A stretch of 64,000 nt of DNA, from assembly GCA_951406725.2 (NCBI GenBank), contig OX597821.1, forward strand, positions 13,144,001 through 13,208,000, in the 5' to 3' direction. The notes below the pieces were generated by a model. The model had not been told where the DNA came from and searched no databases. It saw only the letters and a program-made list of their open reading frames with translations. The position numbers and the translations under genes were made by a program. Origin of the DNA: Octopus vulgaris. Lineage: Eukaryota. Of the stretch, positions 14,880 to 55,472 are shown in pieces; within the stretch, counting starts at the first letter, position 1, and every line of letters begins with the position of its first letter.

Positions 14880-16045
14880 AGTACCTCAGAGCGCACTAGT
14901 GCACCGATAGGAAACTTGATGGAAATTTTGACCATCTGTGTCGAAACTACCTACTCCAGAATGGACACTGATAGAGGGTTTCTTTATCGACAGTTGGAGG
15001 GTTTCTTTATGGGTTCGCCATTATCACCGATAATAGCCAATATATATATAGAATACTTTGAGAATTTGGCTTTAGGATCAACACCAATAAAACAAACCCT
15101 ATGACTGCGATATGTTGATGACACCTTTATACACTGGCTCCAGCAGGAAGATGCCCAAGTACTGTCAGGTCATGTGAACTCAATAAAGCCATCCATGCAT
15201 TTCACAATGGGAACAAAAAGACGATCGGCTAGCGTTACTGGACGTATTAATAACACAAACCAAGTATGGATTCAGGACACCTGTATACTGCAAGCCAATC
15301 TTCACTGGACGATACCTCAACTTCAGTTCCCACCATCCATACAGAGTAAAGAGATGGATTGCTCAGTGCCTAAAACACCGAACAAAGATTATAGGTAACG
15401 ATCTTGATACACACCACAAAGAAATGATCAGGCTAAGTAACAATCTATTAAGCAACAACTGCCCCCAAAACATACTACTCACTCCAATTATAAAGCGAGG
15501 GTGAAACCCATAAACTGACTACAGTCTGTCTATCCTATGTGAAAAGCCTCTCCGAAAAGATACAAAAGACATGCGGCCCATATGACATCAGGACAGTATT
15601 CAAGAGTAATACAACACTTAGCAAATATCTCATTCGAGTAAAACCACCAACAGAAGAGAATATGACCAAAGACTGAGTGTACTCCATCCCATGCAGCTGT
15701 GGTAGGTTATACAAAGGTGAAACATGCCTCAAAATATGGGTAGAGGAACATCGCATAGCTGTGACATGAAGAGTTAATGATAAATCGGGTATAGCTGATT
15801 ATGTATGGAAAAACGGAGACCACCTCCTCCTGTGGGATGAAGTTAAAATAATAGACAGAGAACAGCGATGGAAAATACGAAAACTAAAAGAGGCAGAACA
15901 TATGCTAGTACATAATAATCTCTTAAGCAGATCGAGTGCAGATATGAATAGCATATGGGAACCGATATTAAGGAAGGATAGAAAAATATTAGACTTATAA
16001 ACCCTAAAATTCATACCATAATTGTCCACGGGCATATGGCGTAGG
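14880..16045 (+). mobile_element. Penelope-like element (RT + GIY-YIG), 5'-truncated and decayed
   Basis: YRQLEGFFMGSPLSPIIANIYIEYFE, RYVDDTF (15108-15128), VYSIPCSCGRLYKGET (15677-15724), RKLKEA. Confidence 0.93.
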
Positions 16046-16066
16046 TTTGGAGATGATGTACAGGTA

Positions 16067-16276
16067 TTATATATTAGAAGAAATAATGTACTCAGAAATC
16101 TGGATGGTTTTATATTTACAGATATTTATTAATATGTCTGACGACTCCAATAGAGTGGACGCAAGCGCTAATATATATGATATATATAATTTATAAAAAC
16201 ATGTGGCATATTAATAAATATCTGTAAATATAAAGCCATCCAGATTTCTGAGTACCTTATTTCTTCTAATATATAA
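16067..16276. repeat. Inverted repeat (70-bp arms, 16067-16136 / 16207-16276)
   Basis: Arms are near-perfect reverse complements. Confidence 0.95.
16132..16176 (+). ncRNA. Degenerate minimal type-I hammerhead
   Basis: ATATGT-CTGACGA-CTCC-AATAGAGT-GGAC-GCAA-GCGC-TA-ATATAT; two substitutions from canonical; palindromic helix III. Confidence 0.65.
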
Positions 16277-16294
16277 ATATATATAAATATATAT

Positions 16295-16740
16295 GCAGTT
16301 CTGCCTGCAATGTTATATGGTAGTGAAACATGGGCTACCACAAAGAGAGAAGAGCAAAGACTGGTAACGGCTCAAAGAGCCATGGAAAGGTCAATGCTTG
16401 GTATCTCGTTGAGAGAGCCCATAAGTAGCAAGATCATCAGAAAGAAGTCAGGCGTGAGAGATGTCATCGCAGAGTATACACGCAGCAAGTATAGATGGGC
16501 TGGACACGTCGGCCGGCTCACCGATAATCGATGGACGCATGCAGTTGTCGAGTGGTACCCGCGTGAGCGGAAAAGACCACCCGGAAGACCTCCACGACGG
16601 TGGAGTAACGATTTCAGGAGGACGATTGGGATCACGTGGATGAGAAAGGCGCGATCCAGAGAGGAGTGGACAGCGTGCTGTGACGAGCGGTGTCAAACGG
16701 ACGCCTGACGGACTGGTCGGTCAAAGTGATCAAAGTGATA
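16295..16740 (+). mobile_element. RTE-clade LINE 3' end with open frame
   Basis: VLPAMLYGSETW...RWAGHVGRLTDNRWT...WYPR...GRPPRRW; tail (TCAAAGTGA)2; flanked by (TA)n. Confidence 0.93.
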
Positions 16741-31717: not shown

Positions 31718-31950
31718 GAGGCGCAATGGCCTAGTGGTTAGGGCAGCGGACTCGCGGTCGCAGGATCGCGGTTTCGATTCTCAGACTGGGCGTTGTGTGT
31801 GTTTATTGAGCGAAAACACCTAAAAAGCTCTACGAGGCTCCGGCAGGGGGTGGTGATCCCTGCTGTACTCTTTCACCACAATGGCGGTGCCCCAGCATGG
31901 CCACAGCTCAAGAGCTGAAACTGGAAAAACAAAAAACAAACAAAAAAACA
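31718..31950 (+). mobile_element. SINE family B head + family A-type tail, nested in a family C SINE (31685-32125)
   Basis: GAGGCGCAATGGCCTAGTGGTTAGGGCAGCGGACTCGC; B-box GTTTCGATTC; tail GGCGGTGCCCCAGCATGG. Confidence 0.88.
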
Positions 31951-36100: not shown

Positions 36101-36129
36101 TATATATATGTGTGTGTGTGTGTGTGAAA

Positions 36130-36261
36130 TACAGTTCTATATTTAAAAGATGAGGAATTATGTACATTATTTACATTATTTACATTTGACGGATATTTCT
36201 GCTCATCTTGTTTGTTGTTAACACAACGATTCGGCTGATATACCCTCCAGCCTTCATCAGG
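36130..36261 (-). mobile_element. tRNA-HHR unit, tail-only copy
   Basis: CTGATGAAGGCTGGAGGGTATATCAGCCGAATCGTTGTGTT...; truncated just 5' of the HHR core. Confidence 0.88.
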
Positions 36262-36410
36262 ACTCTTTAGTACGATCGTTCCAATTCAACATAATTTATA
36301 GAACTATACACGAGTTGTCCTCATAAAATTAGACACATCTAATTTTATGAGGACAACTCGTGTATACTTCTATAAATTATATTGAATTGGAACGATCGTA
36401 CAAAAGAATC
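36261..36410. repeat. Fold-back hairpin (73-bp arms, 4-nt loop)
   Basis: Arms 36261-36333 / 36338-36410. Confidence 0.95.
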
Positions 36411-37549: not shown

Positions 37550-37920
37550 GGAAGCACTCCGTCGGTTACGACGACGAGGGTTCCGGTTGATCCGAATCAA
37601 CGGAACAGCCTGCGTGTAAGTGGCTGAGCACTCCACAGACACGTTCACCCTTAACGTAGCTCTCGGGGATATTCAGCGTGACACAGAGAGTGACAAGGCC
37701 GGCCCTTTGAAATACAGGTACAACAGAAACAGGAAGTAAGAGTGAGAGAAAGTTGTGGTGAAAGAGTACAGCAGGGATCACCACCATCCCCTGCCGGAGC
37801 CTCGTGGAACGTTTAGGTGTTTTCGCTCAATAAACACTCACAATGCCCGGTCTGGGAATCGAAACCGCGATCCTATGACCGCGAGTCCGCTGCCCTAACC
37901 ACTGGGCCATTGCGCCTCCA
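37550..37920 (-). mobile_element. SINE family B, full length
   Basis: Head GGAGGCGCAATGGCCCAGTGGTTAGGGCAGCGG, B-box GTTTCGATTCC, tail ...CCGACGGAGTGCTTCC. Confidence 0.93.
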
Positions 37921-38923: not shown

Positions 38924-38970
38924 TCTCTATATGTGCCCTTCCTCTTGTTGTATTTTATCGTTCTTTTTGA

Positions 38971-39154
38971 TACAGTTCTATATTGAAGAGATGAGGAATT
39001 ATTACATTATTTACATTATTTACATTCGACGGATATTTATCTTCATCTTGTTTATTGTTAACACAGCGTTTCGGTTGATATACCCTCCAGCGTTTTTCAG
39101 GTATCTTGAGGAAATTTCGAACCTGGGTTCTCATTCCTAAGGTATTTTTCGATG

Positions 39155-39237
<83 letters not shown>

Positions 39238-39281
39238 GCTGCTGTTGTTGTTGTTTTCTTTCTTCACCACTACGCCATATG
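38971..39281 (-). mobile_element. tRNA-HHR unit, inverted copy with most of the head deleted
   Basis: Reverse complement of 39286-39583; retains ACCACTACGCCATATG at 39266-39281. Confidence 0.9.
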
Positions 39282-39285
39282 ACTT

Positions 39286-39364
39286 GGGCATATGGCGTAG
39301 TTGTTAAGAGCGCGGGTTACTAACCACAAGATTCCGAGTTCGATTCCAAGCAATGACCTGAACA

Positions 39365-39425
<61 letters not shown>

Positions 39426-39583
39426 TAATAACATCGAAAAATACTTTAGGAATGAAAAATCAGGTTCGAAATTTCCCCAAGACACCTGAAGAATGTTGGA
39501 GGGTATATCGGTCGAAACGTTGTGTTAACGACAAACAAGATGAGGACAAATATCCCTCGAATGTAAATAATGTAAATAATGTG
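39286..39583 (+). mobile_element. tRNA-HHR unit: A/B-box head + (AAT)n + hammerhead tail
   Basis: A-box TGGCGTAGTTG (39293), B-box GTTCGATTCC (39338), HHR GACAC-CTGAAGA...GAAA-CG-TT-GTGTT (39481-39526). Confidence 0.88.
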
Positions 39584-40523: not shown

Positions 40524-40759
40524 GAGGCGCAATGGCCGAGTGGTTAGGGCAGCGGACTTGCGGTCGGAGGATCGCGGTTTCGATTCCCAGACCGGGCGTG
40601 TGTGTGTTTATTGAGCGAAAACACCAAAAGCTCCACGAGGCTCCGGCAGGGATGGTGGTGATCCCTGCTGTACTCTTTCACCACTCTAAAAGGCGGTGCT
40701 CAGCATGGCCGCAGTCAAATGACTGAAACAAGTAAAAAAAAAAAAAAAAAAAAAAAAAA
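40524..40759 (+). mobile_element. SINE family B head + family A tail + poly(A)
   Basis: Switches from family B to the A tail after CTCTTTCACCAC. Confidence 0.9.
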
Positions 40760-48291: not shown

Positions 48292-48710
48292 AGGTCCTGG
48301 AGTGGCTGTGTGGTAAGTAGCTTGTCTACCAACCACATGGTTCCGGGTTCAGTCCCACTGCGTGGCACCTTGGGCAAGTGTCTTCTACTGTAGCCTCAAG
48401 CCGACCAAATCCTTGTGAGTGGATTTGGTAGACGGAAACTGAAAGAAGCCCGTCGTATACATATATATATATATATATATATATATGCCTGTGTGTGTTT
48501 GTGTGTCTGTGCTTGTCCCCTAGCATTGCTTTACAACCGATGCTGGTGTGTTTATGTCCCCGTTACTTAGCGGTTCGGCAAAAGAGACCGATAGAATAAG
48601 TACTGGGCTTACAAAAGAATAAGTCCCGGGGTCGATTTGCTCGATTAAAGGCGGTGCTCCAGCATGGCCGCAGTCAAATGACTGAAACAAGTAAAAGAGT
48701 AAAAGAGTAA
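48292..48710 (+). mobile_element. SINE family A, full length
   Basis: Colinear with 21678-22135. Confidence 0.95.
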
Positions 48711-50537: not shown

Positions 50538-50740
50538 TGTGTGGCTTAGTGGTTAGAGCACCAGCACCGCGATCGCAAGATTGTGGTTTCGATTCCTGGA
50601 CCGGGCGACGCGTAGTGTTCTTGAGCAAAACACTTCATTTCTCGTTGCTCCAGTCCACTCAGCTGGCAAAAATGAGTAACGCTGCGATGGTATGGCATCC
50701 CGTCCAGCTGGGGAACACATACGCCATAGAAACCGGAAAA
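50538..50740 (+). mobile_element. tRNA-derived SINE related to family B, with a different body
   Basis: A-box TGGCTTAGTGG, B-box GTTTCGATTCC, then TTCTTGAGCAAAACACTT. Confidence 0.75.

Positions 50741-55163: not shown

Positions 55164-55472
<309 letters not shown>

Follow-up and report, generated by a model that had tools for sequence, protein, structure and literature searches.

A Penelope/Poseidon-type element with a terminal repeat built of a tRNA-derived head, likely an internal Pol III promoter, and a hammerhead-bearing ORF start

Does a match of only 15 nt behind a decayed Penelope ORF mark the edge of a terminal repeat, or is it an accident of sequence? In the window, the entire 64,000-nt stretch of DNA analysed here, positions 16030-16044 are identical to 39286-39300, where a short unit with a tRNA-like head begins, and the next base differs, exactly as the initial annotation had described. 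That annotation also placed the head about 30 nt past the end of the PLE coding sequence, and we measured 29 nt past the stop codon (15998-16000); the family majority likewise gives 29 nt between stop codon and head. The arrangement on the plus strand is that of a 5′-truncated, decayed Penelope ORF extending from the RT core to the GIY-YIG endonuclease (14888..16000; assigned by identity to the family majority, motifs and stop position), followed by a 29-nt 3′ spacer that ends in a short palindrome common to the first bases of the head (16001..16029) and by the first 15 nt of the tRNA-derived head of the 3′ pLTR, the rest of which is missing here (16030..16044). This copy shares 89% identity with the family majority (14888-16044), and RT and EN motifs are present in it, in broken frames. 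Taken within the window, the 15-mer match does not rise above chance (BLAST E 0.12-0.32), which agrees with the earlier caution that a lone match of this length may arise fortuitously in 64 kb. With up to 3 mismatches allowed, the head 15-mer has 4 matches in the window vs. 0.82 expected, and 2 of 100 shuffles reach 4.

The copies elsewhere in the genome (2.8 Gb) were searched with window positions 15700-16200, and nearly all of the matches scored (the best 40 of 3676 candidates) end at the last base of the 15-mer. In the loci fetched with this query, the window's own excluded, the head and/or the tail of the unit lies directly behind the ORF end in 29 of 29. Once all loci are pooled and duplicates dropped, the ORF end is reached by 78 copies. 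Of these, 68 enter the head beyond base 15, 6 carry a partly deleted head and then the hammerhead tail, 1 lies at a locus edge, and 3 score as neither (the window itself, one copy with a diverged head, and one jumping to the end of the tail). Setting aside the window and 8 copies that had been picked by their head leaves 69 copies chosen without regard to it. Reading downstream from copies of 15700-16045, the check that the initial annotation had proposed, thus leads into the tRNA-like head in 61 of these 69 and into the tail only in 6 more, vs. a background of 0/1500. The ORF/head junction is also bridged in contigs under three other organism labels (B, E, and F, not necessarily distinct) and present in loose read ends of a fourth (C). 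A fortuitous match, or a single SINE landing behind this particular PLE copy, would account for the E-value in the window and for the failure of the window copy to run on into the unit, but not for the dozens of unlinked copies that have this junction at an identical base; the pooled tally (61/69 + 6) rules it out, and we give this explanation a negligible probability. In many copies, only 230-640 nt from the start of the ORF body precede a direct join to head or tail (L237, L238, L242, L247, L249, L252, L253, L261, L262, and L263), and these are either internally deleted derivatives or template jumps.

The break after base 15 has a local cause. No remainder of the pLTR beyond the 15-mer was found near the window copy, and the 15-mer is therefore taken as the stump left by an insertion with deletion. 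The DNA from 16045 onward belongs to a different repeat family, usually found beside (TA)n; in most of 40 scored places, identity over the repeat's first 94 nt is 97-99%. The window PLE copy is an old 5′-truncated insertion, and at this younger insertion only 15 nt of its 3′ pLTR survive. The younger, unrelated repeat that cuts it (16045..16290, strand unassigned, right border approximate) has an inverted arm and a hammerhead-like core. The same repeat, also present at loci L267-L285, appears young, with its near-identical ends, inverted arms, and position beside (TA)n; it has no ORF in the 6 copies examined and looks like a non-coding PLE passenger. Adjacent to it, 16283-16705 (plus strand) holds an open frame of 141 codons and then a short tandem tail; the frame has no Pfam match, and we take it to resemble the 3′ end of an RTE-type LINE RT.

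The complete element was built by walking upstream through copies and then taking majorities. The resulting unit of ~2.65 kb consists of a 75-nt head, (AAT)n, a 22-nt leader, an ATG with 835 codons, a stop codon, 29 nt, and the head again. The in-frame ATG lies 22 nt past the (AAT)n spacer, the frame runs through the hammerhead, and the tail of the pLTR is the first ~130-155 nt of this RT + GIY-YIG frame. In full-length copies, and in many loci selected at the 5′ side, the pLTR precedes the ORF in direct orientation: L336 reads head (from –2), tail, whole ORF, and second head, and L341 reads from inside the head through tail and whole ORF into head and tail again. Because the tRNA-head/(AAT)n/hammerhead unit follows the ORF in nearly all copies, precedes it directly, and has the ORF start as its tail, its identity as the pLTR of this PLE family, present at both ends, is well supported. 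The earlier proposal of a 3′ pLTR or a derivative of one is thus right as to the pLTR and too narrow as to its place. A short intron in the pLTR tail supplying the start codon was also considered and was discarded once a cleaner alignment gave the in-frame ATG; the intron joint was absent among the stronger joints listed from RNA reads (depth ~30), ahead of 84 weaker ones.

RVT_1 scores above cut-off in 2 of 4 copy stretches. A GIY-YIG-like motif that encloses two cysteines can be read from the majority at the C-terminus; Pfam gave no GIY-YIG match on the copy stretches, and PF01541 is present in 2 of the 120 homologues listed. The family majority has no CX2-5CxxC Zn-finger linker between RT and EN, a lack that is the rule for the Penelope/Poseidon clade in PMC8557442. 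The copies also bear the structural marks given for EN+ PLEs in the legend to Fig. 2 of that paper, namely direct pLTRs or partial tandems, inverted 5′-truncated arms, and an optional tail of 30-40 nt. Judged from its sequence, the family fits an autonomous EN+ Penelope/Poseidon-type PLE. Copies of the pLTR are 5-7% diverged from the majority, and none of the copies fetched is intact. A random 600 kb sample contains 5 loci with family sequence and 2 heads, which, if extrapolated, gives on the order of 20,000 insertions genome-wide. A cluster of unnamed proteins (P0001-P0004 and related) is 65-75% identical to the family majority and is probably a sister family from another genome. In the genome under study, no sister Poseidon-like family stood out as a nearer control (best identities to P0005 of 42-63%), and all 25 of the 25 loci fetched in that search belong to the PLE family itself.

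Further pLTR copies in the window show the parts of the unit. The solo pLTR at 39286 (plus strand) opens with a head (39286..39360) that is 93% identical to the majority head, with an A box at ~39293-39303 (one mismatch) and a B box at ~39338-39348; the tRNA profile described below matches it at 39287-39350 (E 4.7e-5). The (AAT)n spacer (39361..39429), which varies in length among copies, leads into the tail (39430..39580), in which the 22-nt leader precedes ~130 nt of ORF start (ATG at 39452); this tail stops at the first of the two sites where 3′ ends preferentially fall. By sequence reading, a minimal type I hammerhead lies inside this ORF start (39481..39526), with its stem II decayed in the window copy. 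The inverted arm of the same insertion occupies 38970..39284 on the minus strand and comprises a head fragment, spacer, and tail up to the second 3′ end. A second solo pLTR, cut within its head, lies at 55164..55472 (plus strand), and a third fragment, tail only, at 36128..36270 (minus strand).

An nhmmer profile made from 10 tRNA types of the genome matches positions 2-65 of the majority head (E 1e-6) and has no match under E 1 in a control PLE family. Both A and B boxes are intact in the majority head, at tRNA spacing, the labels following what we take to be the box consensus. Of the few isotypes sampled as a source (only Arg, Ala, Thr, Cys, and Lys, with a few odd calls), Arg(TCG) pairs best with the head (z 7.9). 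The majority head does not fold into the cloverleaf of a tRNA gene. ARAGORN called no tRNA in 31 loci and none in the window; two copies searched against Rfam gave no match to either tRNA or hammerhead, and for the full window the 150 Rfam matches listed, of 226, were all to simple repeats. On profile and boxes, the head is tRNA-derived. The palindrome at the ORF/head border may, as a speculation, be a scar of its capture. The tRNA profile also picks out stretches at 40535-40589 (+), 37853-37907 (–), 50544-50596 (+), 31729-31784 (+), and 48312-48361 (+) of the window, which are likely the heads of other SINE families. At locus L121, 7 tRNA-Cys-like genes are clustered within 3 kb, two of them with changed anticodons.

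The hammerhead falls in codons ~11-25 of the majority ORF. The majority tail has a 5-bp stem I, a 5-6-bp stem II, an extra A, a 4-nt palindrome, and a predicted cut after GUU. The core, the extra base between 9 and 10.1, the G10.1-C11.1 pair, the short stem I, and the loopless palindromic stem III are those given for the minimal type I hammerheads of metazoan PLEs in PMC4209133. The motif is predicted to form a self-cutting RNA, and its cleavage would remove the start codon.

Most heads stand without an ORF. Exact head 19-mers number 2407 in the genome, vs. 0 for the control, and an exact ORF-end 13-mer lies upstream of 157 of them; since about half of the ORF-bearing copies keep such a 13-mer (15/29 and 9/18, counted with a word offset by 2 nt), the share of heads preceded by an ORF is ~13%. 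We examined the first 30 pattern matches, a sample from one contig that requires bases +2 to +20 intact and covers copies not cut inside the head: in 25 the copy begins 0-7 nt ahead of the head, and the other 5 include 46-598 nt of ORF. In a head-selected set, the ORF lies directly upstream in 4/30. An inverted arm accompanies 21 of the 25 solos. The two bases on the ORF side, or their CpG-decayed form, are kept in 16 of the 25, which places the end of the template near –2. The full border palindrome is present in ~9 of the 25, so fold-back of the cDNA may add to the pile-up of 5′ ends. Six 5′ pLTRs reach the head start; three begin there (–2, –2, and +3), and the other three have 62, 182, and 690 nt of ORF end upstream, so that RNAs reading through from upstream exist. 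A comparison of 25 solo with 49 ORF-linked pLTRs turned up no allele that differs (lowest p 0.26); the test is a small one, and several SINE masters with nearly the same sequence would escape it. Since 25 of 30 copies start within 7 nt and no allele separates the two sets, solo heads are likely copies of the element's own RNA start and not a separate SINE.

The 3′ ends of copies cluster ~120-130 and 150-155 nt into the ORF, ~30 nt apart, with 20 and 13 of 46 ORF-linked ends and 12 and 7 of 21 solo ends at the two sites. At locus L074, the tail is tandemly repeated three times, head-to-tail, behind one head, forming a local hammerhead multimer.

On the majority sense strand, runs of four identical bases number 30 for A, 7 for C, and 0 for G, and there is none for T. 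The probability of finding no TTTT is 0.004 under base shuffling, 0.065 under dinucleotide shuffling, 0.027 with the element's own codons, and 0.003 under a synonymous model. The control PLE family has 10 TTTT in 2013 nt, two of them at its thinly covered start, and this control is one incomplete family that is richer in T. That control (L286-L310) is a second, older PLE with a cysteine-rich Zn-finger linker, Neptune-like in character. The absence of TTTT fits read-through by Pol III, as modest evidence that is suggestive and not decisive. Unstranded RNA reads under a related organism label gave no pile of starts, 86-87% of them running on into unlike sequence, and a second unstranded read set likewise gave none. 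From the pile-up of 5′ ends and the absence of TTTT, we infer that the head likely acts as a built-in Pol III promoter. The initial annotation had suggested that an autonomous retroelement may carry a tRNA-derived promoter in its terminal repeat; the tRNA-derived head is borne out, and its promoter role stands at this inferential strength.

Our main reading, to which we assign a probability of roughly 0.7, is that of an autonomous Penelope/Poseidon-type element whose pLTR combines the tRNA head, (AAT)n, and the hammerhead-bearing ORF start, with the head likely serving as an internal Pol III promoter that determines where the RNA begins at its 5′ end. Transcription would start ~2 nt before the head and run into the ORF, where the element's RT/endonuclease would bind the RNA within the ORF start. 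Reverse transcription would begin at either of the two internal sites, ~120-130 or 150-155 nt into the ORF; RT start at two internal sites has been shown in vitro for the anole Poseidon (PMC11167929). Copying back to the RNA 5′ end would yield the abundant solo head-to-tail units, and longer or tandem RNAs would yield the ORF-bearing copies. Candidate sources of the translated mRNA are Pol II read-through and a Pol III RNA that lacks a cap.

Protein-coding RNA normally needs a cap, and transcription could instead be by Pol II, as in Drosophila Penelope, the tRNA boxes being passengers and the pile-up reflecting a Pol II start or an RT stop or fold-back at the palindrome. The pLTR of known PLEs contains an internal promoter (PMC8557442 and PMC6765202), partial tandems with an ORF end upstream make up 3 of the 6 5′ pLTRs that reach the head start, and the palindrome is there in the ~9 solos noted above. 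Yet the 16 solos without the full palindrome start at the same place, copies begin where the tRNA +1 lies, the majority keeps both boxes intact while having lost the cloverleaf, and TTTT is missing; we regard Pol II transcription of this kind as unlikely. The other explanation, that the short units make up a SINE in its own right, one that has separate masters, borrows the PLE enzyme and resembles the pLTR by descent only, draws on the ~83-87% of heads that stand without an ORF, the SINE-like look of head plus tail, and the lower divergence of solos (5.4% vs. 7.3% for ORF-linked copies, in sets that were selected differently). No diagnostic allele sets such a SINE apart in the small comparison of 25 vs. 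49 copies, and the entire unit, head included, stands at both ends of the autonomous element, where masters of its own and a 3′ tail alone in common with the partner would be expected of a SINE. If the rule for the anole Poseidon applies, by which the template needs ORF sequence past the RT start site (PMC11167929), the solos also lack the ORF sequence that such a template requires. An independent SINE is thus decidedly improbable.

Beyond the main reading, it is tentatively conceivable that the whole 2.65-kb coding element is transcribed by Pol III from its captured tRNA promoter, that a TTTT-free strand is maintained, that single copies are self-sufficient, and that one RNA gives rise both to full-length copies and to SINE-like solos; we hold this extension to be somewhat doubtful. 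If it is true, single copies would need no upstream tandem partner, unlike other Penelope elements, a SINE and its autonomous partner would be united in one element, and the protein would perhaps be made from an uncapped RNA.

Among known systems, tRNA-derived SINEs with LINE partners have a tRNA head, internal boxes, and a sharp 5′ end, as here, and a SINE has only its 3′ tail in common with its LINE; in the present family, the autonomous element contains the whole unit, head included, and the insertions bear PLE marks. Poseidon_Ac of the green anole (PMC11167929) similarly has a single RT + C-terminal GIY-YIG ORF, a pLTR that overlaps the ORF start with a hammerhead there, two 3′ ends ~30 nt apart, inverted 5′-truncated arms, and partial tandems. 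It differs in that here the pLTR opens with the tRNA-derived A/B-box head and (AAT)n, most copies start at that head, and the ATG lies upstream of the hammerhead and not at stem II. The TRIMp3 elements Cassandra, Helenus, and Ajax (PMC10886601, 2024) carry a Pol III promoter derived from a small RNA, a tRNA in Helenus, in their terminal repeats, but are short non-autonomous LTR elements, whereas the present repeat is part of a 2.65-kb PLE that codes for protein; their autonomous counterparts are argued in that paper to need Pol II. The hammerhead SINE-like repeats of Schistosoma (PMC6765202) also pair a Pol III promoter with a hammerhead and are short and abundant; they are described as non-coding tandems whose promoter is lost from the cleaved monomers, and the excerpts of that paper describe no ORF-bearing parent. 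Hammerheads in PLEs (PMC4209133) were thus already known, as were short non-autonomous repeats that carry Pol III promoters (PMC10886601 and PMC6765202). The literature searched yielded no tRNA-headed PLE or pLTR, and the word 'tRNA' is absent from the main text of PMC4209133; Repbase, Dfam, subscription journals, and supplements may already contain a consensus.

A coding PLE with a tRNA promoter in its terminal repeat would blur the divide between short elements transcribed by Pol III and autonomous ones transcribed by Pol II, and would show how internal priming by a PLE can generate SINE-like repeats as by-products. Because the RNA start is marked by thousands of copy ends, the origin of PLE RNA and the role of the hammerhead become directly testable in this family. 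Such repeats are likely filed as SINEs in present annotations.
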